Source: Methanobacteriota archaeon (lineage in GTDB: Archaea; Thermoplasmatota; Thermoplasmata; SG8-5; JACRNV01). Taken from it: a DNA stretch of 64,000 bases. The stretch covers positions 240-64,239 of the forward strand of contig JACRNV010000001.1 in NCBI GenBank assembly GCA_016214785.1, written 5' to 3'. Below, piece by piece: positions 1 through 64,000 of this stretch. The notes below the pieces were generated by a model that saw nothing but the letters and a program-made list of their open reading frames with translations, did no database searches and was not told the DNA's origin. The first letter of the stretch is position 1, and each line of letters begins with the position of its first letter. The translations under genes and the position numbers were made by a program.

Positions 1-145
1 TTAATTTGTCTCCATCAATCTTTATTTCAACATCCTGTCTAGCCTTGAATGGGAAAGCAGAATCATTGTGAACCTTTGCAGGTATGTAAATTATCAACTT
101 TCCTTTTGACGGTCTGATTATTTTTCCTTTTCCTGCAAGTGCCAC
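1..145 (-). CDS. Partial small AbrB/SpoVT-like (swapped-hairpin) protein; its 3' end runs off the left edge
   Basis: Absent from the ORF track because it has no stop in the window. Minus-strand reading from GTG at 145 (GGTGA 5 nt upstream; alternative GTG at 154) gives VALAGKGKIIRPSKGKLIIYIPAKVHNDSAFPFKARQDVEIKIDGDKL..., open to position 1. The strand-loop-strand pattern resembles AbrB/MazE-type domains. Confidence 0.3.
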   Translation of the reverse strand, partial: MALAGKGKIIRPSKGKLIIYIPAKVHNDSAFPFKARQDVEIKIDGDKL

Positions 146-261
146 GTTTATCACCTTATTGTAGATACAAAATAGAACCACAAAGCGATATTAAGATCTG
201 ATTGAACCCATTTTTGATCTACAAACGAAAAGATCTAATCCCACACGGCCATCGGGATTCG

Positions 262-1026
262 ATGGAATTATCCCTAAATCAATCGCCAGCCTCACATTAT
301 AAGAGCAAGGCTCAAATCGCCCGCGTCCTGACCGAAAAATGGTTCCTCGACAACGGTTACTGTCCCGCCTGTCCCTCCGACGCGCTCTCGCAGACGCCCG
401 CGAACGAGAAGGTGGTCGATTTCCGTTGCCCTGATTGCGCATCTTCCTATCAGTTGAAGGCGAAGGGCCACAGGCTGGGAGGGAGCGTTGCCAACGGCGC
501 CTACCAGCCTAAAATCGAGATGATCAGGAACGGCACCGCGCCCAACTGGTTCTTCATGGAGTACGACCGGAAGGACTGGACTGTTGAAAACGTGATGCTT
601 GTTCCCGCGCACTTCGTCACGCCTGAAATCGTGCAGAGGCGCAACCCGCTGAGGCCGACGGCCAGGAGGGCGGGATGGGTCGGTTCGAGCGTTCTCATCG
701 CGAGGCTGCCGTTGGACGCAAGGATTCCAATCATCCTCGATGGCCAGGAAATCCCGAGGGCAGACGTAAGGAAGTCCTTTCAGCGCTTCGAGTTCCTGAA
801 AAACAAGTCTCTGGAATCGAAGGGCTGGCTCGCTGATGTCCTCGCGTGCGTCAGAGAACTTCCAAGGGAATTCTCCCTCAACGACATCTACGCCTTCGAG
901 GGCAAGCTGGCTAAACTTCATCCCGGGAACCGGAACGTGAGGCCCAAGATCAGGCAGCAGCTTCAAATTCTGAGAGACAACGGCATTCTGGAATTCGTCT
1001 CTCCGGGAAAATACCGTTTCTTCTGA
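262..1026 (+). CDS. DpnI-like type IIM (methyl-GATC-directed) restriction endonuclease: PD-(D/E)XK domain plus C-terminal winged helix
   Basis: ORF 202-1026. Start placed at Met21 (262, MELSLNQ) by colinearity with the remembered S. pneumoniae DpnI sequence: YKSKAQIARVLTEKW..YCPAC, VVDFRCPDC..YQLKAK, FVTPEIVQRRNPLRPTARRAGWVG, KIRQQLQILRDNGILEF..GKYR. Confidence 0.85.
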   Translation: MELSLNQSPASHYKSKAQIARVLTEKWFLDNGYCPACPSDALSQTPANEKVVDFRCPDCASSYQLKAKGHRLGGSVANGAYQPKIEMIRNGTAPNWFFMEYDRKDWTVENVMLVPAHFVTPEIVQRRNPLRPTARRAGWVGSSVLIARLPLDARIPIILDGQEIPRADVRKSFQRFEFLKNKSLESKGWLADVLACVRELPREFSLNDIYAFEGKLAKLHPGNRNVRPKIRQQLQILRDNGILEFVSPGKYRFF

Positions 1027-42060: not shown

Positions 42061-45018
42061 ATGAAGCGAGCGTGCATAATTCTGGCAGTCATCGTGTTGA
42101 TTGCCAGCATTCTCGTCGCAATACCGAGCAACGTGGGGAACGTGGAAGGGAGCGCCGGGAGACGGAACGGAGTTCAATTCACTTTAGTCCCCGCCTTCAG
42201 GATCGAGAGCAGTGGGGACTTCGCGGCCCATGCGAGCAGCGGAGATGGCAGCATGGGGAATCCGTGGATAATCGAGTTCATCGAGGTAAATGGTTCGGGC
42301 CTCGGGTATTGCATTTACGTGGGGAACACGTCGACCACCTCTTTCATAATACGGAACTCCTACCTGCACAATGCAAGTGGGAACGGTGCAAATTACTTTT
42401 GGAATTCTGGGATAGTCCTCTATAATGTGGCGTTCGGCACGCTTTTTAACAATACGCTCTCGGGCAATGACGACGGCATCCATGTCGAATCTTCAGGTAA
42501 CGTTGCAATCACCAATAATACGGCAACCTCGAACTTGGACGATGGCATCTTCATCAAATATTGTTCCAGCTCCGTCCCGTTGACCGGCAACAATGCATCA
42601 GGAAACAGCTATGGCATCTATCTTCAGCAATGCAGCGGAAACAACGTGAACGGTAACACGGCGAACTCGAACTCCATGAGAGGGATAATGCTCTATCAGT
42701 CCCATGGAAACACGGTAAATGGCAACACTGCGTGTTCCAACGGTTATTTTGGTATACAAATAGATAATTCGAATAACACCAATTGCGATAACAACAACGC
42801 CTCTTTTAATGGTGCCGAGGGCATTGATTTATGGGCGGCGAACAATACCGAGCTATCCGGCAACACCATATCCGGCAATGGAATGGGCATCAACAGCGTG
42901 CTATCAACTTACAATAACATTCAGACGAACACGTTTACCAACGATGGGATTTACATCTATGGAAGCCTCTCGCATTGGAACACTCACACGATAACGGGTT
43001 CGAATACAGTGAACGGCAAAGCCGTATATTATTGGAATGGCGTGACAAATAACATAGTGCCTGCCGGTGCCGGGGAAGTGATTTTGGTCGGTTGCAGTAA
43101 CGTAACCGTGGACGGGCAGAACGTGAGCAACGGGGACGTAGGAATCGAGATAGGGTTCTCGAATAACATCACGGTCACCAATAACACCGTTTTATCCAAC
43201 TCCAATGAAGGAATTTATGTCTGCAGCTCGAACAACAATACGTTTATGAACAATACGGCATCGTCGAACGTGAAGTCTGGAATTTTGTTATCTGGCTCAG
43301 GCAACAACTTGTTGAGCAACAATACACTATCATCGAACAGCCAGAGTGGAATAAACATTCTGTCTAGCTCATCCAACCTCAATACGATAAGAAACAATAC
43401 CATTTCAAACAATCAGGTTGGGATAAGCGACTCGGGGGCGGCATCCAACAACAAGATTTATCATAACGACTTCATCAACAACACCGAGCAAGCTGAAGAT
43501 TACGCTACGAACCAGTGGGACAACGGCTATCCCTCAGGCGGGAACTACTGGAGAGACTACAACGGCACCGACTTAAAATACGGCCCGGGGCAGAACATCA
43601 CGGGGGCGGACGGCATAGGCGACACCCCATGGAACATATCGGGCAGCGCAGGCGCCAAAGACAACTTCCCTCTTATGACCCCCGCGGACGCGAACGACAT
43701 CTTGGCTCCTAACTCCACGGCCACCCCCGCAGTAATGTATTGGAACAATGCCTCTCAGGTGAACGTCACGGCCACGGCCCATGACACGCGCAGCAACGTT
43801 TCCAGCGTGGAGCTGTGGTACAGCTTCAACGGCGGGGCGTACTCTCTGTTAAACTCCGACAACGCGACCCCCTGGGTGTGGAACTTCACATGGCCGAGCG
43901 GAGAGGGGAACTATTCTTTCTACACGCGAGCGAACGATTTGGCTGGGAATTACGAAGCCGCTCACTCGACCGCGGACAGCGCGGCCGGCTACGATGGAAC
44001 AGCACCCACTAGCTCTATCGGTCCTATAACGAAATACTGGCAGACTGGGAGCAGCGTGCCGCTGACGGCGAGCGCAAGCGATAGCACCAGCGGCGTGCAG
44101 AACGTGACGCTGTGGTACAGGCAATCGGCTGATAATTCAACATGGAGCTCATGGAAGCAGTTCAACACAACATCCTCTCTCTACTCGTACAATTTCACAT
44201 TCCCGGACGGCGAGGGATACTACGAAGTGTATTCAACGGTCAACGACACCGCCAACAATACCGAGGCTGCACCATCGACGCCTGACACTCGCTTCGCGTA
44301 TGATTCCACAACTCCAACTATAACGGACGGAAGCGGCAGCGCGGGGACTACTGGCGATACCTTCGTCATTCGCTCAACGGTGACAGACAACCTCAACCTA
44401 TCAGCGGTCAACATCGTGTACTGGTTTGGCACGGGCGCTGCGACGAACTCCACTGCGAACCATTCCTCAGCGAATGGCTACGAGTTGAATGTCAGCCTGC
44501 CATCGAACAGTCTTGATGTAGTATACTACCGCATTGAAGCTTCTGACAGAGCGGGCAATTGGCTCTCCACTTCCGTAAAGAATGTGACGATTTCTGATAA
44601 CGACCTGCCAGCAGCTGAAGCCGGCGCGGACCAGACTGCGCAGCTTGGCGTTTCCATAGCCTTCAACGGGGCAGCCTCAACCGACAACATCGGAGTCGCG
44701 AACTACACATGGACGTTCAACGACGGGGCACAAAACGTCGTGCTATACGGCGCGACAGCATCGCACGCTTTCACTGTCGCAGGGAATTTTTCCATCGTGC
44801 TGACCGTGAAGGACGCCGCCGGGAACAGCGCAACCGATTCTCTCACGGTTACAGTCGCGCAGTCATCTGGCAGCCCATCGGGCGACTCCGGGCTCGGTAA
44901 CTACCTGTGGATTATTGTAGTGATAGTAATCATTGCAGTCGTTGCTGTCGTCGCAGTCATCTTCCTCAGGAAGGGCAAGGGGCCCAAGGCCGCTCCGCCG
45001 CAGGAGCCGCCGCAGTAA
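42061..45018 (+). CDS. NosD-like right-handed parallel beta-helix surface protein with Ig-like modules, a PKD domain and a C-terminal TM anchor
   Basis: N-terminal TM/signal (MKRACIILAVIVLIASILVAIP). PbH1-type repeats (NNT.SGN..GI....S.NN). KIYHNDFINN...WDNGYPSGGNYWRDY (NosD-like). PKD (YTWTFNDGAQ...ASHAFTVAGNFSIVLTVKDAAGNS). Anchor LWIIVVIVIIAVVAVVAVIFLRKGKG. Confidence 0.8.
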   Translation: MKRACIILAVIVLIASILVAIPSNVGNVEGSAGRRNGVQFTLVPAFRIESSGDFAAHASSGDGSMGNPWIIEFIEVNGSGLGYCIYVGNTSTTSFIIRNSYLHNASGNGANYFWNSGIVLYNVAFGTLFNNTLSGNDDGIHVESSGNVAITNNTATSNLDDGIFIKYCSSSVPLTGNNASGNSYGIYLQQCSGNNVNGNTANSNSMRGIMLYQSHGNTVNGNTACSNGYFGIQIDNSNNTNCDNNNASFNGAEGIDLWAANNTELSGNTISGNGMGINSVLSTYNNIQTNTFTNDGIYIYGSLSHWNTHTITGSNTVNGKAVYYWNGVTNNIVPAGAGEVILVGCSNVTVDGQNVSNGDVGIEIGFSNNITVTNNTVLSNSNEGIYVCSSNNNTFMNNTASSNVKSGILLSGSGNNLLSNNTLSSNSQSGINILSSSSNLNTIRNNTISNNQVGISDSGAASNNKIYHNDFINNTEQAEDYATNQWDNGYPSGGNYWRDYNGTDLKYGPGQNITGADGIGDTPWNISGSAGAKDNFPLMTPADANDILAPNSTATPAVMYWNNASQVNVTATAHDTRSNVSSVELWYSFNGGAYSLLNSDNATPWVWNFTWPSGEGNYSFYTRANDLAGNYEAAHSTADSAAGYDGTAPTSSIGPITKYWQTGSSVPLTASASDSTSGVQNVTLWYRQSADNSTWSSWKQFNTTSSLYSYNFTFPDGEGYYEVYSTVNDTANNTEAAPSTPDTRFAYDSTTPTITDGSGSAGTTGDTFVIRSTVTDNLNLSAVNIVYWFGTGAATNSTANHSSANGYELNVSLPSNSLDVVYYRIEASDRAGNWLSTSVKNVTISDNDLPAAEAGADQTAQLGVSIAFNGAASTDNIGVANYTWTFNDGAQNVVLYGATASHAFTVAGNFSIVLTVKDAAGNSATDSLTVTVAQSSGSPSGDSGLGNYLWIIVVIVIIAVVAVVAVIFLRKGKGPKAAPPQEPPQ

Positions 45019-45055
45019 CCATATTCATTTATACCGCCCGGGCAATCGCGCCCCC

Positions 45056-46024
45056 ATGCCCAGATGCTCGCAGTGCAGGGAGCCAGCCGTGATTTTCGTC
45101 AGGTACAGCGGCAGGCACCTCTGCGCAAGGCACTTCTGCGGCTTCCTCGAGCAGCGCGTGGCGAAGGAGGTGCGCTCCATGGGCAAGCTGCCTCGCGGCT
45201 CCAAGATGGCGTGCGCGGTCTCCGGCGGCAAGGACAGCACCGTCATGCTGCACCTCATGCGCGGGCTCCTCCACCCAAGGGGCGGCGTCGAGCTGGAGGC
45301 GATAATCGTCGACGAGGGCATAAGGGGCTACCGCGCCGGAGGCATCGCAGTCGCAAAGCGCGAGTGCAGGCGCCTCGGCGTGCCGCTGACAGTCGTGAAG
45401 TTCAAGGAACTGGCTGGCTGTACCCTTGACCAAGCTGCGAGGCGCATGCCTGGTACTATCCCATGCGCCGTTTGCGGCGTCTGGCGCAGGCAGGCACTGA
45501 ACAGAGCGGCGAAGGAGATGGGTGCGAGCAGGCTAGCGCTCGGCCACAACCTCAACGACGTCGCCGGCTCCGTCCTGATGAACGTGTGCAGGGCGGACGT
45601 CGAGCGGCTCGCGCGCATGGCCCCGCACGGAAAGGTGCAGCCGGGGCTCGTCCCGAGGATGTTGCCGTTGCGGTGGATACCCGAGGAGGAGGTCAAGCTC
45701 TACTCGTACATCAAGGGATTGAACGTCCTAGAGGCCGAGTGCCCGTACGCCGAGCGCGCCGAGCGCGGGAAGTTCGTCCGCTTCCTCGCCGGGATGGAGG
45801 ACGCGAGGCCGGGCACGAGGCATTCGGTGCTCGGGTTCTGGGAGGGGGTGAGGGAGTGCGTTCAAGCGTCCCGCCCTCCGGCGAGTTTGAAGGAGTGCCC
45901 CCGATGCGGCGAGCCTACCGTATCGCGGCTGTGCAAGGGTTGCGAGCTGACCGCGCAGTACATCCATGCGAGGGGGGATGGCAGGACGGCCCTGCCCGGG
46001 AAGGGGCGCAGAAAAGCCCGATAA
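45056..46024 (+). CDS. TtuA/Ncs6-family tRNA 2-thiolation PP-loop ATPase
   Basis: N-terminal Zn-finger CSQC...CARHF, PP-loop AVSGGKDS, CAVCGVWRR (cluster ligands), and a C-terminal CPRCGEP...CKGC. Start at the internal Met at 45056. Confidence 0.8.
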   Translation: MPRCSQCREPAVIFVRYSGRHLCARHFCGFLEQRVAKEVRSMGKLPRGSKMACAVSGGKDSTVMLHLMRGLLHPRGGVELEAIIVDEGIRGYRAGGIAVAKRECRRLGVPLTVVKFKELAGCTLDQAARRMPGTIPCAVCGVWRRQALNRAAKEMGASRLALGHNLNDVAGSVLMNVCRADVERLARMAPHGKVQPGLVPRMLPLRWIPEEEVKLYSYIKGLNVLEAECPYAERAERGKFVRFLAGMEDARPGTRHSVLGFWEGVRECVQASRPPASLKECPRCGEPTVSRLCKGCELTAQYIHARGDGRTALPGKGRRKAR

Positions 46025-53044: not shown

Positions 53045-53183
53045 ACCGGTAAGCTGCACGTTTTGCTCCCAGTTCTTGTCCCGTATCACTTTATGTACAA
53101 TTTCGCGCGCGCGTTCGACCACAACTCTTTTATTCATAGTTCGCAGTGAGGTGGACAGCAGCATCTTGAGCGGAGGGGGTCAA

Positions 53184-56100
53184 ATGACCAAAATCACTGG
53201 TAGCGTAGGGGCTAGTGTGGGAACGATAATGGCGGCTGTTCTGGCGCTCGTATTTCTGTGCTCGGCGCTGAGCCCAGCCGTGTCTGCGAAATCTGCGGCA
53301 GCGCCGGCGGCGATTGCTGCTGATGATAAGACCGGCCAAGCGACCACGGGTCCGGTTGGCCCGATGGCGCCTGAAAAGCAGGCGGACAGCGCCCAGCGCG
53401 TCGAATGGGCGCCAAAGGTGACGGAACAAAGGGATGCTATAAAACGGGATTTTGGAGAACCGGCTCCCACTATAGAATCGAAGATCAAGGCAAACGGGAT
53501 TGAGGCAGCTCCTGCTCTCTCGCAGCCAGCGGCCGCGCCCAGCGAACAAGCGAGCAAGCCATCGCTCTCTTCTCCTCCTGCCATCAATCAGGTTCAGCCC
53601 CGGTTGCGAGAACAGAGGGAAACCCCGACTCATGTACCTAACATCGTGGCATCCTCGCAGCCGAGCGATGGCATGACGGCCGCTCGCTCAACCCTTGCCG
53701 CCGGAAATCCCGGAAGGACCCCCGCCCGGGAGATACCACAGCCTACAGTCAATGCGAAGACGAATGTCATAATCGTGTGCGCAGACGATTACCCAGCCAC
53801 TCTGATATCCCAGTTGCAGGGCCATGGCAACATAGGAACTGTCGATTTCTGGAATGCGGCATCCACCACTCCAACCGCGGCGGATTTATTGCCCTACGAC
53901 GTCGCAATCACTTTCTCAAATTCTCCATACTCTAATCCTGTGGCCATTGGCAACGTCTTTGCAGACTATATCGATGGAGGCGGGAGCTTAGTAGCGGCTA
54001 CTTTTTGCTTGTACGATGCAGGTAGTAATTTTGGGATAAGCGGTCGGATAGTTAGCGATGGATACCTGCCTTTCATCTCAAACGATACAGGCAATTACTA
54101 TTCCTGGAGCACGCTAGGAACCTATAACGCAAGCCACCCGTTGATGGGCGGCGTGAGCGCAGTCACAGATTACTACCGCGATTACGTTTCTTTAGATCCA
54201 TCCGCGGAATTTGTCGCTTCATGGGCAGACGGGGCCGGGTTTGTGGCAGTCAAAGGAAATGTGGTAGGGATCAATTCGTATCCCGGCCCATATTACGATG
54301 CTACTGGTGACATTTGGAATTTGTTCTGCAATGCAGTCCTATACTTGAATCCCCAGACATATAGACTCACTTTGATGCCCGGCGTCGTTAACAAGATAGC
54401 TAAAACAGGACAGGTGTTCAACATCTCAATGGCATTGCAGAACACGGGGCTCAACAATGACACATACGACTTATCCTTCGCCAACGACACATGGCCTGTA
54501 TCATTCTTGGACGCAACAGGGACGACCCCGATAGCGTCGATAGGTCCAGTGGGTAGCTTTGGCTGGGAATATTTCACGGTCAGGGTTACGGTGCCAGGGA
54601 CGGCCGTGACTGGCGATTTTGACGAGTTCGAAGTCAATGCGACCTCCCAGAATGATACTGCGATTTCTGAGATATCTCTAGTCAACGTAACTTGCTTCAA
54701 TGGCATTGCCGTAGGCATCTACGACCACCCGGACGTGAGCGACATCTCATATTGGACCGACGGAAACGGGAACTCCTGGGCCGATTACCAGGGTGTCGTC
54801 GATAGCGACCTGCAAGGCAGGTTCATGAGCTTCATCATTACCGAACTTAGCCCGTGGACGCTTGAGCTTCTAGACGTCATCGTCCTTCCAGACAATGCAA
54901 TACCCGATGCGGACCTGGCAGCCGTTAACGCGTGGTTCTTGCCGGGCAAGGGCATCATCGCCGTCGACAGCGCGGCCTGCTTCGCGACCTATTCGGGCTA
55001 CATGTTCCCGGCTGGCGCAGGCACCAATGGCAATGGCGTATACTGGGATTACAACACAAATGAGAACGACCAGTGTATCTTGATGCCCCATAAGATTACA
55101 GAGTCCTATGAGATCAACGACATTTACAGCTCTATGGGAGGAGACGCCCAATATTACAACTCGATGCTTCCTTTGGACGCACTGGCGCTCACCACCCAGA
55201 AATGGAACAGCGAGTATGTTTATGCGGTCGCGAGGGAAGTCCCCGGTGCGGGAAGGATAGTGGGCTTGGGCCCATATGACTCTCACCCAGACGGGACCGA
55301 TGAATTGATAAGGGACGCGATAGAATGGTCGGCGAGCCTGGGCTATTACAGCGTCGTCGCCCAGCCTGGGAACCAGGAAGGGTACGGTTCCGGCGGCGAG
55401 ACCGTGGACTTCACGGTGACGGTCCTGAACACGGGGACAAGCGCCGATACATACGACCTTACGGCGACGGGTTCCGTCTGGACCGCCGAGATATACGACG
55501 CGACCGGAACGACCGTGATATCGTCCATAGGGCCAATATCGGCGGGCGCGTCGGCGGATTTCATCGTCAGGGTGTCGATTCCCGGCGGGTCGTCAATGGG
55601 CGCCTTCGACGAGGCGAGCATCCACATCGAATCGCAGAGCCAGCCATCCGCAAACGACACAGCAACGGTCAGAACACAGGTGCCTTATGTTGGCGAATGG
55701 TTCGACGGCCTCGAGTCGGGGATGGCCGATTGGACGGTGGACGACATCAGCCACGTCGTGCCCTCGACCACGTGGGAGACGGGAGACCCGACGGGATATC
55801 CACCTATCTCTCCGTATGATGGGACAAGCTGCGCTGGGACTAACCTGCTCGATTACTATTACATTGGAGCGGACACCGTCCTCGAATCACCTTATTTAAC
55901 TCTCGAGGCGGGCGGTGTGTTGCTGTCTGAGGAGTTCGGTTCAGGAACTATGCCTCCTGCTGGGTGGTCACACATACCGAACAATGCTTATACATGGTTT
56001 ATCGAAACTAATACGCCACATTCGGCCCCATATTATGCAGATTGCCAGTACGACCCTGCACTCAATACCCAAGACGAGTGGCTGATATCGCCTCCGCTTG

Positions 56101-59100
56101 ACCTCACAGGGTGCACGGGAACGGAACTTAGGTTCTGGTGGTACATGAGCTACTATTGGGGCGTCAACCCGTATGACAATTACGACCTCAATGTGTATGT
56201 GAGCACGAACGATTGGGCGACCTCGACCTTCATGTGGAACGAGGACGGCCTCTCATTCTCGAATTGGGTTTGGTACGACACCGACATGGGACTGCCGCTC
56301 GACCTGTCGGCCTTTGACGGTATGAGCAACGTGGAGATAGGATTCCAGTACTCGGGTGCGGACGGCGCGGAGCTGGCTCTCGATGACATTACAGTAACAA
56401 CGACGGCAGGCAGCTGCAACATGTCCTTCTTCCAGTGGTATGACATCGATACGAACGACGGCGGTTTCGTTGAAATCTCCGTCGACAACGGGCCATGGAC
56501 CCAAATCGATCCGGTCGCGGGATACCCGGTTACTGGCAACGCTGGCGGGTACGTGACCAATTGCTACGCAGGCGCAAGCGGCGCATGGTATTACGAGGTT
56601 TACGATGTGTCGTCGTATGTTGGCTCCACCGTGAGATTCGGCTTCCACTTCGCGAGCGAGACCATGAACAGCAACTGGGGATGGTACATCGACGATGCGT
56701 TCGTCGGAGGCACACCATATTCCATGGACGCCACTCCACCTCTGCAGGCCGGGTTTGGCGACCCGGGCGACTCTGTATTCTACACAGTCGATGTGAGCAA
56801 TACTGGGTATATCTTCGATACGTACGACCTCAGCGTGGTTGTGAACACGACCGAAGTCTGGTTCTACGACCTGGGGATGAGCCCGATCACGTCGATAGGC
56901 TCCATATCCGCAGGCAGTTCGGCCTCGTTCATCGTAGAAATCGTGATACCCGGCGCGAACGCGCCTGGGGCTTGGGACGGCGCAGTTATTCAGGCCACTT
57001 CGCAGAACGACTTGAATGTGTTCGACCAATGTGAGATAATCACGCAAACCCTGGCGCAGTTCCTCCTGGTCGACGACGACGGCGGCCTTATCACTGAAAT
57101 GTGGTACGACCAGGCTTTCGTCGACAATGGCTGGGCATACGACTACTGGAACACGGGCTTCATGGGCGTCCCATCGGCTTCGGTTCTCGCGCTGTTCGAC
57201 GCCGTCGTTTGGGGCACCGGGGACAATAGTGGCGGCTATGTCGGCGGCCAGCCATTTGACACTCTGTCGGTGGATGAGATGAATGAAATCACTACGTTCC
57301 TCGACAATGGTGGCAGGATGTACCTGTCAAGCGCCGGGTGCGGCGCAGACGCCTTCTTCAACGGATGGGATGGATGGCTCGGCGCTTATTTCGGCGCTTT
57401 CCCATACAATCTTGATGTGGGCACAAGTTATGAGCTAATCGGGGAGCCATACGATCTCATCGGCGACGGCCTCGACTACTTCATGCACCAAGGTGACGCG
57501 GATCCCGAAGTCCAGGGAATCCTCGGGATGAACGCGCCCTTCGGCGCCCCCACATCCACAGCATGGATAATGTCGGACATGGGGGATTTCGCAGCAATCA
57601 AGACTCCTACTTTCACATACAGAACTGTCCTAAGTGGCTACGAGTTCGCGGACATCGACGGGCAAGCCAACAGGGCCATGACGCTCAGCAGGATCATCAA
57701 CTGGCTGCTATTGCCCGACTATGTATTGGCCGCACCGAGCTACCAGGAGTACGCGGCGGGGGCGGATACGACGGTCATCTACCCCATGACGATTACCAAT
57801 CTCGGCATGCTCGATGACACATTTGACCTGAGCATCGCCCCCGCTCCTCTGTGGACAACCGAAATAAGGGACGAGACCGGCACCATTGTCATAACCGACA
57901 GCGGGTTCGTGCCTGGGGGAAGTATGTTCAACTTCACCATTGCCGTGCAGATTCCGATTGGCGCTGTGCCTTCGTACAGCAGCCAGGCCACACTGAACGT
58001 CTCCTCTCAAAACCAGCCTGGCGTTTACGCGCTCGCAGACGTTTGGACTTACTGCTACGTGACGCCCCCGACGACCGACGATTTCGAGGGCGGTACCTTC
58101 GACAGCATGAGGGCCATGACATTCGGCAATATAACGACGCAATGGGAGCAGGGCGACCCGTCGAGCTTCCCGTCTGGCCCGGGCAGCGCGTATTCTGGCG
58201 CGAACTGCTGGGGCACGAACCTGCTCGCCAATTACACGCCAGGCACTGATTCCTGTCTCTACACGCATTACTACAACCTGAGCCTGGCGCAGAGCGCTAA
58301 CATGACGTTCTGGCAATGGTACAGCATGGACCCGAACGATGGCGGATGGGTTGAAATCAGCACAGACTTCACGCAGACATGGACACAAATCCGTCCAGTG
58401 GGCGGATATGGCGGCACGAACTGGTACGGCATCGAAAGTTACCTCGGCACAAGCGGAGGCTGGCAGCAGGGCTTGTTCAACCTCTCGGATTACGTGGGCA
58501 AGGTCGTAATACTGAGGTTCAAGTTTGCCTCGACCCCGATGACCCCTATCACGTTTGCGGGATGGTACATTGACGATGTGTCTGTCGATGCAATCTTACC
58601 GACCCGGGGCGTGTTGGTCTCGCCGGCCTCGGCGATGCAGATATGCGTGCCGGGCGCGAATGCCGATTACCAGCTGACGGTCAAGAACATCGGGACAAGC
58701 GGCGACGACACATTCGACCTGACGGCCGCGAGCTCGAATGGATGGCCGGCGGGCACATATGACCTCGGGATGAACCCAATCAGCAGCCTCGGTCCGCTGG
58801 CATATGGCGCGTCGGAGAACATCATCGTCAGGCTGACGGTGCCGCTTGTTTCGTCACCCGGGCAGTCGGACGATACACTTGTAACGGCCACTTCGCAGAA
58901 TGACTCGGCGGCGAACGACACTGCGCTGCTGACGTCACAGGTCCTGGCGCCGATACTGCTGGTGGACGACGACCTCGGGATAATGTCGCAATCCTGGTAC
59001 GAGTCGGCGCTGACGGATTCCGGCTTCGCTTTCAACAAGTGGGACGTCAGCGTGTTCGGAGCCCCGGCGCTCGGCGACCTGGCGCAGTACGATGGCGTGG

Positions 59101-62100
59101 TCTGGCTGACCGGCAACGCCTACGGTTTCAACGGCAACAGCCTAACGTTCGATGACAGGGTGGCACTGGGCCAGTACATGGCGGCTGGCGGTAACGTTTA
59201 CCTTTCCGGCTCCATGGTCCCCATGGAAGCCCACGACTACGGATGGGAAGGGTGGCTTAGCAACTACTTCGGGGCCGCTGCGGTGAACGCGTCCATGGGC
59301 TCGCAGGGGTGGGGGTGGGAGATGTTCGGCACGGTCCCGCAATCCATCGAGGGCGTGGCCGGCGACCCGATAGGGGACGGCATGACGCTTGCGCCGCACA
59401 TGGGAGATTACTGCCCCGCGCTATGGGGAACGTACACTATCATGCAGACAGCGTCCCCGATGGCCAGCTACTCGTTCAACTTCAATCCCGGCCTGCCCGG
59501 AGGGACGGAAGGGGCCATGATCAGAATGGACAGCGGCATTCACAGGGCCGTGTACTCGTCCTTCGACTTTGCCGAGGTCAACAACAACTTGGCAAGGGCG
59601 GGCCTGATGTACGAAATCCTCAGATGGATGCTTTCCAGAAAGCCTGTCGTGGAGAATGCGTTGCTCGATGGCGCCCCCTTCGAATCCGTGTACCCTGGTG
59701 CCATGGTCACGCTCACGGCGGTCGTGAACACGACGATGACCGGCGGTTACAACGTCGCTGGCGCGAACTGCACCTTCGGTCCCTTGGCTTGGCCTGGAGC
59801 GCCGATGGCTGCCCAGGACGGGTCGTTCGACTCGCCGGTCGAGACGGCGACGCTGACAATCGATACGACCGCAGCCGCGGACGGCATCTACTATCTCTAC
59901 GTCTACGGCTGGGACGAAGTGCCCAACTACAACGACACGTCGCAGGCCTACGCGATCCTGCTTGTCGATTCGACGCCGCCCGACAGCAACGTCGTGCAGA
60001 CTGGGTCGTACTGGCGCAGCGCGAACCCCGACGCGGTCACGATATCGGCGACGGACAACCTGTACGTACCCGTACTGGAGGAGAACTTCGACGGCGGCGC
60101 CTTCCCGCCCGCCGGATGGAGCACGGCTGGAATATGCAGTGCGTATACTATTTTGCCGATGCTGACCCACTACTGGGCGCAGTACGACGACGCGGTCATC
60201 GGAGTGCCGATTTCATACTCTCCGCCTGATTGCGCTGGGGTTTGGTGGAGCGACGGGAGTGGCGGCGACCCGCCGGCAGGCGATCAGAACGAATGGCTGA
60301 TATCGCCGAGCATCGATGCGTCTGGTTTGACTAACATGCAACTCACCTTCTGGTCGGTCTACACGATGATGAGGTACGGGGCGGCAGACGGCGCCCACGA
60401 TTACGTGCGGGTCTCGGTGGACAATGGTTCGAGCTGGACCATAGTCGCGGACCTGGCGCATGACGCGGCCTTCGACTTCGACGGGTGCTCGGGAGGATGG
60501 ATCGGCAACTCGAGTTGGAACTATTATGACTTCCCCATCTCCATAGACCTGAGTTCCTATGCCGGCAACCCGAACGTGCTGGTGGCATGGAACTACGTCT
60601 ATGATTCCGCGTCGCCTGGAGGCCGGGGAATCTGGATGGTCGACGACGTATCGATACAGATGTCGGGCGTCGCAAGCGTCGATTTGTGGTACAGGTACAG
60701 CGCGGACAATGCGACGTTCGGGCCTTGGTCTCTCTTCGGCACTTCGACGTTGCCGCCGTTTGACTTCGCGTTCGATTGGCCTGATGGCCAAGGGTATTAC
60801 GAGTTCTACTCCGTCGCCACCGATCTCGCTGGAAACACCGAGGCAGCGCCCGCAGGGGCCGACGCGATATACGCATACGAGACGACGGTCCCCTCGAGCA
60901 ACGTCGTTCAGAACGCCGGCTACTTAAACTACGGCGCCGGTTTGACCATCGACGGCACCGCCAGCGACTCTCCGAGCGGCGTGGATTTCGTCCAGCTATG
61001 GTCTCGCGTCTCGAACGACAATTCCACATGGTCTCCCTGGAGCCTCGCGATGGCCGATTACCTAGCGCCGTACCAGTGGGACTTCGTGGCGCCCCAGGAC
61101 GGGTACTACGAGTTCTACAGCCGCGCCATGGACTTCGCAGGCAACTACGAGGCGGCGCCCGGCGCGGCGGACGCTGCGGGAGCGTTCGATATTTCTCCCC
61201 CGACGAGCAATGCCGTGCAGGGCCCTCAGTATGCATGGAACACTGGACCGATGACTGTTCAGGCTGCCGCCGATGACATGTACGTATTCCTCAACGAAAA
61301 GTTCGAGGGCACGTTCCCGCCCGCGGGCTGGAGCGTCGACACACTGGCCGGCCTGGGATGGGAGCGGAACGACTGGTGGGGTGACGGCAACTACGTGACC
61401 GGAGGTGGCGACTACTGCGCCGACGTAAACAGCGACGCGTACGGTACTTCCCTAGAGTCTGTGCTCTACACGCCAACGCTAACCTTTGGCGGTCTGCCAC
61501 CGAGCACTCCCTTGTACCTGGAATACGATGCAAATTTCCAGTGTTACATCACTGATGATCAGGGATGGACAGAAATAAGCATCGATGGAGGAACGAGCTG
61601 GACGACCCTCCTCTACTGGAACGAGGACCATCCCCCGGGAGGCACGTACGTGGCTCCTGGAGTGCACGTGAGCATCGACATCTCCGCGTACGCGGGCGAG
61701 CCCAGCGTCCAGTTCAGGTTCTATTACTATGCACCGGACTGGGACTGGTACTGGCAGCTCGACAACGTCGTCATCCAAGTGCCGCAGAGCGTCGCACAGG
61801 TGGAGCTGTTGTACAGGTCCTCCCTAGACAACGCCACTTGGGGCGCATGGACGTCCTTCGGCAACGACAGCGCCGCCCCGTATTCGTGGGACTTCAGCTG
61901 GCCCGACGGGGACGGATTCTACGAGTTATACACTATCGCGACCGACAACATGGGCTGGGCGGAATTGCCACCGTTGATGGCAGACGCATCCTATTTGTAC
62001 GATACCACAGCTCCAACGATCGCCTCGACCCTCCCGGCTGACGGGAATCCGAGCTGGAGCATCGCCGCTGGAACATACTCTATCCAGTTCAGCGAGCTAA

Positions 62101-64000
62101 TGAACGTCCTTGCCGGCGCGCCCCCGAACACGAATCTGCCTATCACAGGATGGGCTTGGGACGGGGCCGGGATGTGGCTCAACGGGACGTACACTGCACT
62201 CGCGGTCAGCACGCTTTACTGGGTCGACTTGGCGGGGCTCGGATACACCGATGCAATTGGAAACGCCCTCGGTGGCGACACGAACAAGTCCTTCACGACG
62301 GCCGCAGGTCCGTGGGCCGCAGTCACGAGCCCCTCGGGGCCGAGCGTCGATACAATGCCCACGATACTGTACGATTTCGGGTCCAGCCCGACCAGCGTCG
62401 AGATATACAACACGTCGGACGGAGGCGCCACGTGGACCCTGTGGGGCACTGACGCAACGGTTGACGGCACATGGACTCCCGGATCGAGCTTGTCCATCGA
62501 TGGCCCGTATTACTGGAGCGCGAGGGCGTTGGACGGCGCGAACGACGAACCGGTCCCGTCCAGCCCGGTCGACATCGAGCACGGGCCTTACATCCTGGAC
62601 ACGACATCGCCGTCGAGCTCCGTCGACCCAGTGGCGCCATTCTGGGGTAATACCATACCGACCACATTCTTCGCCACAGCCTCGGATGGCCTAACCAGTG
62701 TCGCCTATGTCGAATTCTGGTACGCCTATTCAGCAGACAACATAACCTGGGGTGGCTTAACGATGTTCGACAACGATACCGCCGCACCGTGGTCAGCGCC
62801 CTTCACTTTCCCAGACGGCGAAGGCTATTACGCCTTCGTATCCCGCGCAGGCGACATATTGGGGAACTATGAGGGATTGCCCGGCACTTTGGACGCGGAA
62901 TGCGGGTACGACATAACAACCCCTAACAGCGATGCAATCTATGCGGCGCCTTACGTGAAGACCTTGCCGACCGAGACAATCGACGCGAACGCGAACGACG
63001 CGCTCAGTGGCGTCGCCTCGGTCGAGTTGTGGTACAGGTTCTCGGCCGACAATGCGACGTGGGGCTCCTGGACGATGTTCGGAACAGATACGGCAGCCCC
63101 CTGGCAATGGGACTTCGACTGGCCGATGGGCGTGGGCTACTACCAGTTTTACACGGTGGCACATGACATTGCCTCCAACGCCGAGGCGCCGCCAGCGCTT
63201 CCCGACGCCGAGTACCAGTGGTTCCCGCCATTCCCGGTAAGCGTCGTGGAGAGGACTGCGGCATATTGGCACAACACCAATCCCGCGATGATCACTGCCA
63301 ACGTGACTGTAACCGCCAACCCGGTTGATTACGTCGAGCTATGGTACAGGTTCAGCTCAAACAACGCGACCTGGGGCTCATGGGCATATGGCTTGAACGA
63401 CACGGACGGCGCCCCCTGGCAATGGAGCTTCGGCTGGCCCGATGGCGAGGGATATTACGAGTTCTACAGCAGGGCGGCAGACACGACGGGAAACTACGAG
63501 CCCGCTCCGACATCCGCAGATGCGCAATATGCATGCGACGCGACGGTTCCAGCGAGCTCGGTCAATGCCGCAGGCGCATACTGGCGTACATCTCAGCCTC
63601 ACACGCTGACCGCGAGCGCGAGCGACGGCCTTTCCAGCGTGTCGTACGTTGAGCTCTGGTACAGGTATTCCGCAAACAACGCGACATGGGGCGCCTGGGC
63701 GCTGTTCGGCAACGACACACTCGTTCCATGGTTATGGGTATTCACATGCCCCGATGGCGACGGGTTCTACGAGTTCGCGTCGGCAGCCGGTGACATCGTA
63801 GGCAACTACGAGGGCGCGCCATCCGCGGCGGATGCCGCATACGGATACGACACGGCTGGGCCAACGAGCTCTTGCGACGTGACCGGGCCGTACTGGTACT
63901 CCTCGATGCCTATATCCATATCGATAACTGCGACCGATGGAACCAGCGGCGTCAACAGGGTGCAGCTATGGGGCAGGTTCAGCGCGGACAACGCGACCTG
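53184..64000 (+). CDS. Second giant secreted multidomain protein, 5' part only (>3,605 aa; ORF open at the window end)
   Basis: Not in the ORF track because there is no stop. I translated 53184-64000 by hand and found no stop codon. GGAGGGGG lies 4 nt upstream of the ATG. Signal peptide MTKITGSVGASVGTIMAAVLALVFLCSALSPAVSA, then an Ala/Pro-rich linker, then repeated recognisable modules (see findings). Confidence 0.85.
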   Translation, partial: MTKITGSVGASVGTIMAAVLALVFLCSALSPAVSAKSAAAPAAIAADDKTGQATTGPVGPMAPEKQADSAQRVEWAPKVTEQRDAIKRDFGEPAPTIESKIKANGIEAAPALSQPAAAPSEQASKPSLSSPPAINQVQPRLREQRETPTHVPNIVASSQPSDGMTAARSTLAAGNPGRTPAREIPQPTVNAKTNVIIVCADDYPATLISQLQGHGNIGTVDFWNAASTTPTAADLLPYDVAITFSNSPYSNPVAIGNVFADYIDGGGSLVAATFCLYDAGSNFGISGRIVSDGYLPFISNDTGNYYSWSTLGTYNASHPLMGGVSAVTDYYRDYVSLDPSAEFVASWADGAGFVAVKGNVVGINSYPGPYYDATGDIWNLFCNAVLYLNPQTYRLTLMPGVVNKIAKTGQVFNISMALQNTGLNNDTYDLSFANDTWPVSFLDATGTTPIASIGPVGSFGWEYFTVRVTVPGTAVTGDFDEFEVNATSQNDTAISEISLVNVTCFNGIAVGIYDHPDVSDISYWTDGNGNSWADYQGVVDSDLQGRFMSFIITELSPWTLELLDVIVLPDNAIPDADLAAVNAWFLPGKGIIAVDSAACFATYSGYMFPAGAGTNGNGVYWDYNTNENDQCILMPHKITESYEINDIYSSMGGDAQYYNSMLPLDALALTTQKWNSEYVYAVAREVPGAGRIVGLGPYDSHPDGTDELIRDAIEWSASLGYYSVVAQPGNQEGYGSGGETVDFTVTVLNTGTSADTYDLTATGSVWTAEIYDATGTTVISSIGPISAGASADFIVRVSIPGGSSMGAFDEASIHIESQSQPSANDTATVRTQVPYVGEWFDGLESGMADWTVDDISHVVPSTTWETGDPTGYPPISPYDGTSCAGTNLLDYYYIGADTVLESPYLTLEAGGVLLSEEFGSGTMPPAGWSHIPNNAYTWFIETNTPHSAPYYADCQYDPALNTQDEWLISPPLDLTGCTGTELRFWWYMSYYWGVNPYDNYDLNVYVSTNDWATSTFMWNEDGLSFSNWVWYDTDMGLPLDLSAFDGMSNVEIGFQYSGADGAELALDDITVTTTAGSCNMSFFQWYDIDTNDGGFVEISVDNGPWTQIDPVAGYPVTGNAGGYVTNCYAGASGAWYYEVYDVSSYVGSTVRFGFHFASETMNSNWGWYIDDAFVGGTPYSMDATPPLQAGFGDPGDSVFYTVDVSNTGYIFDTYDLSVVVNTTEVWFYDLGMSPITSIGSISAGSSASFIVEIVIPGANAPGAWDGAVIQATSQNDLNVFDQCEIITQTLAQFLLVDDDGGLITEMWYDQAFVDNGWAYDYWNTGFMGVPSASVLALFDAVVWGTGDNSGGYVGGQPFDTLSVDEMNEITTFLDNGGRMYLSSAGCGADAFFNGWDGWLGAYFGAFPYNLDVGTSYELIGEPYDLIGDGLDYFMHQGDADPEVQGILGMNAPFGAPTSTAWIMSDMGDFAAIKTPTFTYRTVLSGYEFADIDGQANRAMTLSRIINWLLLPDYVLAAPSYQEYAAGADTTVIYPMTITNLGMLDDTFDLSIAPAPLWTTEIRDETGTIVITDSGFVPGGSMFNFTIAVQIPIGAVPSYSSQATLNVSSQNQPGVYALADVWTYCYVTPPTTDDFEGGTFDSMRAMTFGNITTQWEQGDPSSFPSGPGSAYSGANCWGTNLLANYTPGTDSCLYTHYYNLSLAQSANMTFWQWYSMDPNDGGWVEISTDFTQTWTQIRPVGGYGGTNWYGIESYLGTSGGWQQGLFNLSDYVGKVVILRFKFASTPMTPITFAGWYIDDVSVDAILPTRGVLVSPASAMQICVPGANADYQLTVKNIGTSGDDTFDLTAASSNGWPAGTYDLGMNPISSLGPLAYGASENIIVRLTVPLVSSPGQSDDTLVTATSQNDSAANDTALLTSQVLAPILLVDDDLGIMSQSWYESALTDSGFAFNKWDVSVFGAPALGDLAQYDGVVWLTGNAYGFNGNSLTFDDRVALGQYMAAGGNVYLSGSMVPMEAHDYGWEGWLSNYFGAAAVNASMGSQGWGWEMFGTVPQSIEGVAGDPIGDGMTLAPHMGDYCPALWGTYTIMQTASPMASYSFNFNPGLPGGTEGAMIRMDSGIHRAVYSSFDFAEVNNNLARAGLMYEILRWMLSRKPVVENALLDGAPFESVYPGAMVTLTAVVNTTMTGGYNVAGANCTFGPLAWPGAPMAAQDGSFDSPVETATLTIDTTAAADGIYYLYVYGWDEVPNYNDTSQAYAILLVDSTPPDSNVVQTGSYWRSANPDAVTISATDNLYVPVLEENFDGGAFPPAGWSTAGICSAYTILPMLTHYWAQYDDAVIGVPISYSPPDCAGVWWSDGSGGDPPAGDQNEWLISPSIDASGLTNMQLTFWSVYTMMRYGAADGAHDYVRVSVDNGSSWTIVADLAHDAAFDFDGCSGGWIGNSSWNYYDFPISIDLSSYAGNPNVLVAWNYVYDSASPGGRGIWMVDDVSIQMSGVASVDLWYRYSADNATFGPWSLFGTSTLPPFDFAFDWPDGQGYYEFYSVATDLAGNTEAAPAGADAIYAYETTVPSSNVVQNAGYLNYGAGLTIDGTASDSPSGVDFVQLWSRVSNDNSTWSPWSLAMADYLAPYQWDFVAPQDGYYEFYSRAMDFAGNYEAAPGAADAAGAFDISPPTSNAVQGPQYAWNTGPMTVQAAADDMYVFLNEKFEGTFPPAGWSVDTLAGLGWERNDWWGDGNYVTGGGDYCADVNSDAYGTSLESVLYTPTLTFGGLPPSTPLYLEYDANFQCYITDDQGWTEISIDGGTSWTTLLYWNEDHPPGGTYVAPGVHVSIDISAYAGEPSVQFRFYYYAPDWDWYWQLDNVVIQVPQSVAQVELLYRSSLDNATWGAWTSFGNDSAAPYSWDFSWPDGDGFYELYTIATDNMGWAELPPLMADASYLYDTTAPTIASTLPADGNPSWSIAAGTYSIQFSELMNVLAGAPPNTNLPITGWAWDGAGMWLNGTYTALAVSTLYWVDLAGLGYTDAIGNALGGDTNKSFTTAAGPWAAVTSPSGPSVDTMPTILYDFGSSPTSVEIYNTSDGGATWTLWGTDATVDGTWTPGSSLSIDGPYYWSARALDGANDEPVPSSPVDIEHGPYILDTTSPSSSVDPVAPFWGNTIPTTFFATASDGLTSVAYVEFWYAYSADNITWGGLTMFDNDTAAPWSAPFTFPDGEGYYAFVSRAGDILGNYEGLPGTLDAECGYDITTPNSDAIYAAPYVKTLPTETIDANANDALSGVASVELWYRFSADNATWGSWTMFGTDTAAPWQWDFDWPMGVGYYQFYTVAHDIASNAEAPPALPDAEYQWFPPFPVSVVERTAAYWHNTNPAMITANVTVTANPVDYVELWYRFSSNNATWGSWAYGLNDTDGAPWQWSFGWPDGEGYYEFYSRAADTTGNYEPAPTSADAQYACDATVPASSVNAAGAYWRTSQPHTLTASASDGLSSVSYVELWYRYSANNATWGAWALFGNDTLVPWLWVFTCPDGDGFYEFASAAGDIVGNYEGAPSAADAAYGYDTAGPTSSCDVTGPYWYSSMPISISITATDGTSGVNRVQLWGRFSADNAT
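59970..64000 (+). repeat. Eight copies of a 104/105-aa beta module (V(E/D)LWYR(Y/F)S.(D/N)NATWG.W..FG.D...PW.W.F.WPDG.GYYEFYS.A.D..GNYE..P), the last five tandem
   Basis: VxLW landmarks lie at 60678, 60990, 61800, 62709, 63021, 63333, 63648 and 63960, with spacings of 312/315 nt except where other domains are inserted. The array continues beyond the window. Confidence 0.8.

Follow-up and report, generated by a model that had tools for sequence, protein, structure and literature searches.

Split Ig-like domains in giant surface proteins

The closest known case to the protein described here is that of the bacterial RTX adhesins, namely MpIBP of Marinomonas primoryensis and FrhA of Vibrio cholerae with its Aeromonas veronii homologue (PMC10865825). 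Split Ig-like domains of FrhA and MpIBP project PA14, peptide-binding and sugar-binding domains off the fibre axis (PMC10865825). In these adhesins a whole ligand-binding domain is nested in an Ig-like bead of a giant fibrillar protein and interrupts the sequence of that bead. The guest enters and leaves its host at adjacent points, an arrangement interpreted as holding the binding domain off the fibre axis, and the split host tends to escape sequence-profile tools. A literature search for split Ig-like domains found this design, among surface proteins, only in bacterial RTX adhesins, and searches on choice-of-anchor J and on nested domains in archaeal surface proteins yielded nothing on the architecture reported below.

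The window analysed here, a stretch of 64,000 nucleotides from a Methanobacteriota archaeon, carries a giant gene, open at the window end, whose product likewise has beads interrupted by whole nested domains and likely to escape profile tools. Its guests are putative ligand-binding domains that would be held off the fibre axis, with ends that would leave the host at adjacent points. Unlike the RTX adhesins, it belongs to an archaeon (archaeal SSU rRNA is present in the assembly) and is anchored by a C-terminal transmembrane (TM) helix, without type I export and without RTX repeats; a Pfam scan of the whole protein finds no RTX families. The break in the Big_7/Fn3-like host comes about 30 residues in, at the turn from strand B to strand C, whereas in FrhA it follows one strand of 12 residues. 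Choice-of-anchor-J/cleaved-adhesin-like jelly rolls take the place of the PA14, peptide-binding (PBD) and sugar-binding (SBD) domains of RTX adhesins, and a single protein has two hosts interrupted at one and the same loop, each by a guest from a different subfamily. The protein is an analogue of the RTX-adhesin split Ig-like type, not a member of it. Since host, guest, insertion loop and anchor all differ, the solution looks convergent, and the split Ig-like design, so far bacterial in the literature searched, occurs in archaeal giant surface proteins too.

Both building blocks have described relatives. The host fold is that of the CbhA X1 modules of Clostridium thermocellum (3pdd, 3pe9) and of CelAly B1 (9kvu), which are continuous in sequence. 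The best structural matches of the guests are the K1-K3 domains of Kgp, the Lys-gingipain of Porphyromonas gingivalis (4itc, 3km5, 3m1h), beside MAM domains (meprin 7uab, RPTPmu 2c9a, neuropilin 5l73), which match at Z 12-14; sequence identity to these cleaved-adhesin and MAM structures is only 12-21%. Gingipain domains stand in tandem and are released by proteolysis, whereas the guests here are nested. Compared with the choice-of-anchor J family NF038128, one guest (G1) carries about 35 extra residues, and all three guests (G0, G1 and G2) are nested rather than free-standing.

The giant gene and its module array

The reading frame is open from position 53076, with a probable ATG at 53184, and runs through the window to the contig end over at least 3,893 codons (Table 1). 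The end of a second contig (C67, minus strand) overlaps the end of this contig by an exact 91 nt and joins the gene pieces. On C67 the gene continues with two further modules, a pair of Big_5-like domains, a CarboxypepD_reg-like domain, a single TM helix and a cytoplasmic tail. The orthologue in genome G014 is complete, with 4,511 aa, and has the same two ends. The protein is a type-I-anchored archaeal giant of about 4,400 aa, with an N-terminal signal peptide and a single C-terminal TM helix. After the signal peptide follow an Ala/Pro linker, alpha/beta, CARDB-like and MAM-like modules and an Fn3/Big_7-like array. The chain of 104-aa beads of this array fills the membrane-proximal half, with the split beads M1 and M3 at its outer end.

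Table 1. Features of the giant surface-protein gene, in window coordinates
Feature	Position	Strand	Evidence and remarks
Giant surface-protein gene	53184..64000	+	open at window end; no stop from 53076 to contig end
G0, choice-of-anchor-J domain inside a MAM-like (InhA-like_MAM) jelly roll	55914..56417	+	NF038128 49 bits
M1, N-terminal part (strands A, A', B), ends ...ISATDN	59970..60059	+	profile 2-30, iE 2.4e-5; AF2 strands 5-9, 21-28
G1, 202-aa choice-of-anchor-J-like jelly roll, G1-type subfamily	60060..60665	+	aa 2329-2530; NF038128 41.5 bits
M1, C-terminal part (strands C to G)	60666..60881	+	profile 26-104, 97.1 bits
M2, intact 104-aa module between the split ones	60882..61193	+	profile 1-104, 136.9 bits
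M3, N-terminal part, ends ...QAAADD	61194..61277	+	profile 3-29, weak alone (iE 0.094); AF2 strands 4-8, 20-27
G2, 170-aa choice-of-anchor-J-like jelly roll, G2-type subfamily	61278..61787	+	aa 2735-2904; NF038128 24.8 bits
M3, C-terminal part	61788..62003	+	profile 30-104, 81.5 bits
M4 to M8, uninterrupted membrane-side stalk modules	62601..64000	+	full-length profile matches, 140-153 bits; array continues past the window

V-x-L-W landmarks of the modules lie at 60678, 60990, 61800, 62709, 63021, 63333, 63648 and 63960, with spacings of 312, 810, 909, 312, 312, 315 and 312 nt, as an earlier note on this DNA had reported. That note counted eight modules, a number that rises to at least 11 once the sequence past the window is read, and it took the two split modules to be consecutive, which they are not: the intact M2 stands between M1 and M3. 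M2 is the positional orthologue of the matching modules in G014 and G005 (98/89* in the module tree). According to sequence profiles, the modules belong at most to the fringe of Big_7 in Pfam (cut-off 24.1), since M5 scores above the cut-off (27.3 bits) and M7 below it (17.8 bits). Scores against the NCBIfam OmpL47-type model reach only 15.6-24.1 bits at a cut-off of 40. In models, the hosts superpose 85-90 residues on Fn3-like domains (3pdd, 3pe9, 9kvu) at 1.9-2.2 Å and Z 10.8-11.8.

Two modules split at the same loop

Including their guests, M1 spans 59970-60881 and M3 spans 61194-62003. A module profile built from seven intact modules matches each of them in two complementary pieces: positions 2-30 at aa 2300-2328 and 26-104 at aa 2524-2602 (iE 3.3e-32) for M1, and positions 3-29 at aa 2708-2734 and 30-104 at aa 2902-2976 (iE 2.3e-27) for M3. 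Alone, the N-terminal pieces score 10.7 bits (M1) and -0.8 bits (M3). With the insert removed, both read as full modules, at 124.6 bits over profile positions 2-104 (M1) and 99.2 bits over positions 4-104 (M3). Insertions of 202 and 170 aa into the same host loop, as first described in the earlier note, are thereby recovered, and both fall at profile position 29-31, in the D-x-x-S-G-V turn that joins strands B and C. Since about 4 residues of the loop give way to the 170-aa insert, M3 grows by a net 498 nt. To profile-based annotation, such a module looks like two orphan fragments and a jelly roll, and therefore the architecture is misread.

AF2 models of M1[G1] (pLDDT 92.3, pTM 0.81) and M3[G2] (pLDDT 94.3, pTM 0.81) are in line with this. 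The joined host halves superpose on 3pdd over 88-89 residues at Z 11.3 (rmsd 2.0 Å for M1, 1.9 Å for M3), and on 9kvu over 89-90 of 94 residues at Z 11.8 (M1, range 1..304) and 11.7 (M3, range 1..270). The flanks are halves of one module, as the spliced profile scores and the superposition of the AF2 halves on single Fn3-like domains both indicate. In each model, host strands and terminal guest strands are only 1-4 residues apart (DSSP), and therefore the host beta-sandwich still closes and the chain runs on through the host. Secondary-structure boundaries and the host superposition imply that the guest termini are adjacent in the models, and they suggest that the guest would project laterally from the fibre, at the bead's N-terminal pole.

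The M1[guest]-M2-M3[guest] layout recurs in two further genomes of the order, where G014:C22 is 54% identical over residues 3-678 and G005:C61 51% identical, and also in the metagenome proteins P0004 and P0009. In the module tree, M1, M2, M3, M5 and M6 are positionally orthologous across the three genomes, and the M3 hosts of these genomes form one clade (99/94*). The distribution is patchy, with 3 of the 22 genomes of the order, which may be compatible with whole-gene horizontal transfer, loss or assembly gaps.

Family and fold of the guests

NCBIfam NF038128 (choice_anch_J) is a 162-position model with a curated cut-off of 30 bits. G1 passes it with 41.5 bits over positions 1-162 (40.8 bits in a genome-wide scan), and G2 fails the cut-off, with 24.8 bits (E 2e-5) over positions 2-162 and 23.6 bits in the genome-wide scan. 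G2 is best called choice-of-anchor-J-like, which is supported by a tree shared with the G1-type copies and by the same fold. That the same guest family entered the same loop twice therefore holds in the sense that both guests are choice-of-anchor-J-like jelly rolls, though G2 lies below the curated cut-off. G1 and G2 are only 37% identical; with its positional counterparts in the orthologues, G1 shares 53-62% identity. A search of genome contigs with M1[G1] returned only distant free-standing bacterial guests (Cloacimonadota, Bacteroidota, Verrucomicrobiota) at 25-34% identity.

The Kgp K1 cleaved adhesin (4itc) aligns in VIA-align to G1 at Z 14.3 (160 aa, rmsd 3.6 Å) and to G2 at Z 15.5 (153 aa, rmsd 3.1 Å). 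Z scores for G1 and G2 are 13.0 and 12.8 with the MAM domain of meprin (7uab), and 12.2 and 13.3 with that of RPTPmu (2c9a). Other fold matches of the guest models comprise MAM domains, reelin repeats and carbohydrate-binding modules (CBMs), and Foldseek E-values for the guest matches range from 5e-7 to 4e-6. At the level of sequence, the Pfam families Cleaved_Adhesin and MAM match neither G1 nor G2 at E up to 1.

Based on fold similarity and on the analogy with bacterial RTX adhesins, we hypothesize that the guests are ligand-binding heads. In M1 and M3 a complete choice-of-anchor-J/cleaved-adhesin/MAM jelly roll takes the place of the short B-C turn (D-x-x-S-G-V), and the predicted heads, for glycan or protein ligands, would be shown sideways as in those adhesins. 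The guests are the obvious candidate binding heads of the surface fibre of an uncultured archaeon.

Origin of the guests and alternative explanations

It might be argued that there is no true nesting, each flank being a truncated or degenerate domain of its own, or the locus an assembly chimera; the N-terminal pieces are indeed short (28-30 aa) and weak alone. However, the spliced halves score as complete modules, AF2 pairs them into one Fn3-like sandwich with pLDDT >90, and the layout recurs in independent assemblies and metagenomes. Both variants are rejected on these grounds and hardly deserve any credence, and the outcome that the earlier note had named as fatal to its reading, separate truncated domains on either side of the insert, is contradicted by profile and models. 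A different objection would accept the nesting and assign the guests another role, as structural braces or spacers at junctions or as protease-resistant envelope bulk. The insertion lies at the N-terminal pole of the host, beside the junction with the preceding module, and the very short linkers together with the pTM of 0.81 suggest a rigid unit. Yet the fold is matched best by adhesin, MAM and carbohydrate-binding modules, the guests of analogous split domains in bacteria are proven lectins (PMC10865825), and G2 evolves faster than its host and was probably exchanged, which is more typical of interaction surfaces, so that we regard a purely structural role as unlikely. The reading that we consider probable is that of an archaeal surface giant in which the B-C turns of M1 and M3 are replaced by separately acquired guests that would act as sideways heads.

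The origin of the two guests is addressed by trees resting on 167-202 columns. The G1-type and G2-type clades are divided by a starred branch (99/99, length 1.22); free-standing archaeal copies are numerous in both, and the G2-type clade also holds a bacterial copy. A clade of G1 plus G2 is rejected by AU tests on the 21-row and 19-row trees (p 1.9e-40 and 8.6e-55), at a cost of 97-102 lnL units. The guests belong to two old subfamilies, and therefore they were acquired separately in this protein and not copied with an already-split module. The contrary scenario, a single insertion followed by tandem duplication of the split module, with G1 and G2 as diverged copies of one nested ancestor, draws on the insertion loop being shared by two paralogous modules of a single protein. 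Between positional clades the host-module tree is starlike, and a sister grouping of M1 and M3 survives the AU test (p 0.34); moreover, the two nested guests of P0009 are close relatives (61% identical), and therefore copying within a protein does happen in the family. Against this stand the low identity of G1 and G2, their placement in two subfamilies with many free-standing archaeal copies, and the cost of forcing one clade; a rescue would need repeated excision of nested copies to found all free-standing ones. One insertion plus module duplication is rejected for this lineage by the AU test and the two deep guest subfamilies, and it appears very improbable to us. The guest tree proposed in the earlier note thus disfavours duplication after insertion and displays two deep subfamilies instead. 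A DNA repeat search around the inserts found neither direct repeats at their flanks nor a recent duplication, with similarity at the level of motifs only. No donor copy of G2 is found in this genome, the nearest other sequence being about 30% identical. The locus offers a clean natural case of one loop nested at least twice independently, with other guest families elsewhere, which is useful for learning which loops tolerate whole-domain insertion and for Fn3 scaffold engineering.

Trees of guest and host also conflict at M3. G2 of this protein is joined to a free-standing G011 domain (99/98*), and one clade of the four positional G2 guests is rejected (ΔlnL 20.9, p 0.005) while their hosts form one clade. 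In P0009 the third-module position holds a G1-type guest. Judging from these sequence trees, the M3 guest seems to have been exchanged between lineages, the host staying orthologous. Because G2 of this protein sits on a long branch (0.69-0.87), an artefact of evolutionary rate could account for part of this turnover signal (p 0.005). One conceivable path starts from an ancestor with G1-type guests in both M1 and M3, arisen by duplication, in which the M3 guest was later swapped for a G2-type domain in the present lineage. P0009 shows such a layout, host and guest trees are incongruent at M3, and terminal motifs common to both subfamilies, F-P-P-x-G-W towards the beginning and D-[DN]-V towards the end of the domain, could guide recombination. 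However, a G2-type guest sits in M3 of four of the five known proteins, P0009 is incomplete and the roughly 65 residues of its third module do not fix the orthology of that module, and the opposite direction, with the guest of M1 converting that of M3 in the P0009 lineage, fits equally well. We give this path a low probability.

A possible permissive loop

Modules of this family are also interrupted at the B-C loop in two further proteins, P0010 and P0059, by unrelated guests 160 aa and 216 aa long, and the spliced modules score 102 and 110.8 bits. Pfam, run on the whole proteins, places no family on either guest, and a similarity search with the P0059 guest gave only scores <0.9. The B-C loop thus holds at least four kinds of guest: G1-type, G2-type, 160-aa and 216-aa. 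We infer from this that the loop may be a permissive socket whose guests are swapped by recombination. As a more far-reaching and rather doubtful proposal, the B-C turn could be a conserved socket in this lineage and its neighbours, into which binding domains are plugged and exchanged while the stalk stays orthologous. If true, cells would have a modular mechanism of head swapping by which the binding range of their surface is diversified.

A third nested domain

Upstream of the array, G0 passes the NF038128 cut-off of 30 with 49 bits (49.7 bits in the genome-wide scan). In the whole protein, the best match to Pfam MAM is located on G0, with 19.6 bits against a cut-off of 26.4. The spliced host of G0 aligns gap-free across the junction to an uninterrupted paralogue at aa 1655-1850 (44% identity, E 8e-38). 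By this alignment G0 is a real nested copy, and the count of three nested copies in one protein given in the earlier note stands.

Two modules split by nested jelly-roll domains

The giant surface protein carries successive 104-aa Fn3/Big_7-like modules (M1, M2, M3 and so on), of which M1 and M3 are each interrupted by a choice-of-anchor-J-like jelly roll, the guests G1 and G2 (see table). A module profile was built from seven uninterrupted modules and run against the window protein. Intact modules match the profile across positions 1-104 with 137-153 bits. The flanks of M1 give complementary partial matches (profile 2-30 at aa 2300-2328, iE 2.4e-5; profile 26-104 at aa 2524-2602, iE 3.3e-32), and those of M3 match profile positions 3-29 (aa 2708-2734, iE 0.094) and 30-104 (aa 2902-2976, iE 2.3e-27). 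With the inserts excised and the halves joined, each host scores as a single domain, M1 with 124.6 bits (profile 2-104) and M3 with 99.2 bits (profile 4-104). The V-x-L-W landmarks lie exactly where the earlier note had placed them, and by alignment each insert costs the D-x-x-S-G-V turn 2-4 residues. Membership of the host in Pfam Big_7 (cut-off 24.1) is borderline, M5 scoring 27.3 bits and M7 17.8 bits.

The window's genome holds 23 complete modules in 10 open frames, and M1 and M3 are its only split ones. A neighbouring NosD-like protein has two complete copies of the same module, and eight further open frames contain complete modules, none of them split. A shorter, distant relative of the module lies between a Big_5 domain and M4.

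That one loop had accepted the same guest family twice, as proposed in the earlier note, agrees with these data: both guests are choice-of-anchor-J-like and both sit in the D-x-x-S-G-V turn, G2 scoring under the family cut-off. Each aligns along the full length of the NCBIfam choice-of-anchor J model (162 positions), and the guests belong to, or adjoin, this family. The third nested copy counted there (G0) is genuine, as its spliced host crosses the junction without a gap against an uninterrupted paralogue (44% identity, E 8e-38).

Nine small proteins from a protein-library scan (P0048, P0064, P0079, P0103, P0114, P0121, P0134, P0145, P0149; 372-741 aa) carry a free-standing G1-type domain, 42-54% identical to G1 across all matched stretches. 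The four of the nine displayed in the alignment share recurring motifs such as L-T-H-Y-W and C-A-G-x-W-W-S-D-G. Because of this identity and these motifs, the G1-type looks like a distinct, well-conserved subfamily outside Pfam coverage.

Coordinates of the giant gene, its nested guests and related features (window positions unless a contig is named)
Feature	Position	Strand	Length	Remarks
Open frame of the giant gene	53076 (TTG) to window end	+		contains the nested modules
Guest G0	55914-56417	+		choice-of-anchor J, 49 bits; nested in MAM-like domain
Guest G1	60060-60665	+	202 aa	NCBIfam choice-of-anchor J, 41.5 bits (cut-off 30)
Guest G2	61278-61787	+	170 aa	NCBIfam choice-of-anchor J, 24.8 bits (below cut-off 30), E 2e-5
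Module relative	62301-62600 (ORF aa about 3076-3175)			profile 31-96, iE 0.033
NosD-like protein	42258-45257		999 aa	ORF C48|+|42258
Choice-of-anchor-J copy	G000:C64:184835-185314			may be nested
Choice-of-anchor-J copy	G000:C67:18494-18955			may be nested

Structural models

Each split module was modelled with AlphaFold2 from a mixed alignment of full nested orthologues, guest-only rows and host-only rows, in which intact-module rows span the insert by one clean gap. Mean pLDDT is 92.3 for M1 with its guest (304 aa) and 94.3 for M3 with its guest (270 aa), with a pTM of 0.81 in both cases. Both models show two host strands, the guest, and five host strands (C to G). In M1, strands A and B comprise residues 5-9 and 21-28; the guest begins its first strand at 33 and ends its last at 232, with host strand C following from 234. 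In M3, strand B extends to 27, the guest's first strand begins at 29 and its last ends at 197, and strand C follows from 200. Very few residues separate host from guest strands in either model.

The two models were compared with known structures in a search against representatives. Single Fn3-like domains of 90-94 residues superpose on a model range covering both host ends: 9kvu on M1 and M3 with Z 11.8 and 11.7 (90 and 89 of 94 residues; rmsd 2.2 and 2.1 Å), and CbhA 3pdd with Z 11.3 (rmsd 2.0 and 1.9 Å). Since such an alignment is possible only if they do, the two host halves form one sandwich in the models. The flanks are thus parts of one module, as the earlier note had claimed, both by the profile score of the joined halves and by superposition. 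Fn3 topology puts the B-C turn at the N-terminal pole, and the guest would accordingly be expected to stand out next to where the preceding module joins.

The guests (residues about 30-233 in M1 and 28-198 in M3) match the K1 cleaved-adhesin domain of Lys-gingipain (4itc), G1 with Z 14.3 (160 aa, rmsd 3.6 Å) and G2 with Z 15.5 (153 aa, rmsd 3.1 Å). Further matches are reelin repeats, the MAM domains of meprin, RPTPmu and neuropilin (Z 12-14) and many carbohydrate-binding modules. Foldseek gave the same outcome for the guest.

Origin of the nested guests

The split modules could derive from a single insertion followed by duplication, or from independent insertions, between which the earlier note had proposed to decide by a guest tree. 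A tree of 21 guest rows separates G1-type from G2-type copies by a starred branch of length 1.22. A tree of 45 rows gives one starred clade per type, of 21 and 14 rows, both made up mostly of free-standing copies; the G2-type clade includes a bacterial copy. Constraining the six nested guests to one clade costs 97-102 log-likelihood units and is rejected (AU p 1.9e-40, 8.6e-55). G1 is 37% identical to G2 and 53-62% identical to its positional orthologues. The host tree neither supports nor rejects a clade of M1 and M3 (p 0.34). Most simply, the trees can be read as two separate acquisitions, in which distinct members of the guest family were each inserted at the same loop of a different paralogous module.

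At M3, host and guest trees are discordant. In the host tree, which covers the window's genome, G014 and G005, the M3 hosts form one clade (99/94*). The window's G2 clusters with a free-standing domain of a protein from the related genome G011 and a Chryseolinea copy (99/98*), apart from the G2 guests of G014, G005 and the metagenomic protein P0004. One clade of the four positional G2 guests is rejected (dlnL 20.9, AU p 0.005), on a short alignment and with a long branch for the window's G2. These data suggest that the M3 guest was probably exchanged. P0009, a truncated protein, has a G1-type guest in its third-position module, a tentative counterpart of M3; this guest is 61% identical to that of the first module.

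Conservation and distribution

Relatives were searched in 41 related genomes, including the window's own. The 678-aa block from M1 through M2 to M3, with both guests, is matched end to end in G014:C22 (54% identical) and G005:C61 (51%), both outside the window's family but in its order. By profile mapping, both share this layout exactly and continue with ten or eleven intact modules. A HMMER scan of 1.84 billion representatives added two split-module proteins, both from JGI metagenomes: P0004 (4,940 aa) and P0009 (1,787 aa, truncated).

When the modules of all three genomes are placed in one tree, M1, M2, M3, M5 and M6 form positional clades, each with all three genomes and mostly starred. Because these clades unite the three genomes, the tree argues that the array with both split beads is older than the divergence of these lineages. 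Nested M1 occurs in 3 of the 22 genomes searched within the order, a patchy distribution that could be due to loss, gene transfer or poor assembly of repetitive genes. Splitting is rare: roughly 9 of some 690 modules (about 1.5%) are split in 149 other best-matching proteins, the window's own deposited protein (P0003) being excluded.

Ends of the gene and membrane anchor

The start codon is probably the ATG at 53184, followed by a signal peptide. The frame is stop-free to the end of its contig C48 (at least 3,893 codons), and the terminal 91 nt of C48 match the end of contig C67 exactly in reverse complement (minus strand). There, the frame extends 531 residues past the 30 encoded in the overlap, through the remainder of M10, one complete module, two Big_5-like domains, a CarboxypepD_reg-like domain, one hydrophobic helix (TM) and a charged cytoplasmic tail. 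The contig break falls inside the module repeat, where M9 and M10 are 77% identical, and repeat copies could have collapsed at the join. The complete G014 orthologue (4,511 aa) is organised alike, from an N-terminal signal peptide to a C-terminal TM helix and Lys-rich tail. Because of this shared plan and the C67 continuation, the window protein is a type-I-anchored surface giant of ~4,400 aa.

P0003 (3,460 aa) begins at ORF residue 434 (window 53076-54377 region). ORF residues 230-423 match the G014 orthologue (50% identity, E 2e-53), which, with the signal peptide behind the ATG at 53184, suggests that the public call is probably short of ~400 N-terminal residues, among them the signal peptide.

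Comparison with known systems and possible function

Split Ig-like domains of the RTX adhesins MpIBP and FrhA hold PA14, peptide-binding and sugar-binding domains; in the authors' argument, this arrangement keeps the two termini together at one side and makes the binding face point outward (PMC10865825). The window protein is not a member of this class, being archaeal, TM-anchored and without RTX repeats; the assembly contains a full-length archaeal SSU rRNA (1,479.7 bits). The split falls in the B-C turn of its Big_7/Fn3-like host, about 30 residues in, whereas in the FrhA host only one 12-residue strand precedes it (PMC10865825). Its guests are choice-of-anchor J or adjoining, unlike the PA14, peptide-binding and sugar-binding guests of RTX adhesins. 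A literature search of incomplete coverage found no account of this nested architecture.

From the adhesin, MAM and CBM fold matches and the bacterial RTX precedent, we infer that the intact membrane-side beads may form a stalk, at whose outer end the split beads would hold the jelly-roll heads rigidly, sideways off the fibre, for predicted binding of glycans or proteins. The guests could instead act as a structural brace. The analysis confirms what the earlier note had observed, supports its reading and adds to it two separate acquisitions, a probable guest exchange at M3 and other guests at the same loop.

Other guests and other hosts

Domains of 160 aa in P0010 (aa 1926-2085) and 216 aa in P0059 (aa 1418-1633) split modules of the same family at the same B-C turn, the spliced hosts scoring 102 and 110.8 bits. 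Against the guest profile, the P0010 domain gave no match (iE 0.11) and the P0059 domain none at E up to 100. In P0133 (aa 1786-1926), a different loop holds a domain related to the P0010 guest (39% identical). Family assignment was sought for these three guests and none was obtained. It is conceivable, if rather doubtful, that the loop acts as a socket in which heads are swapped.

Two more choice-of-anchor-J copies of the window's genome, on contigs C64 and C67, are flanked by parts of another beta-sandwich domain, with an apparent first strand (...DNAYENLTE...) before and the rest (LEH[RK]W...F-x-F-A-Y-S-T-D...) after. They may represent more nesting in a third kind of host, of which this genome holds no uninterrupted paralogue for comparison. 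In L018, an open frame of the related genome G004 (contig C11), a G2-type guest (ORF aa 563-727) lies inside a MAM-like domain, between its opening D-D-F-E-S-G...W strand and a W-x-x-G...C-W-G-T-D-L part. This loop differs from that of G0 in the window protein, and the MAM-like host therefore has more than one site at which the same guest family is nested.
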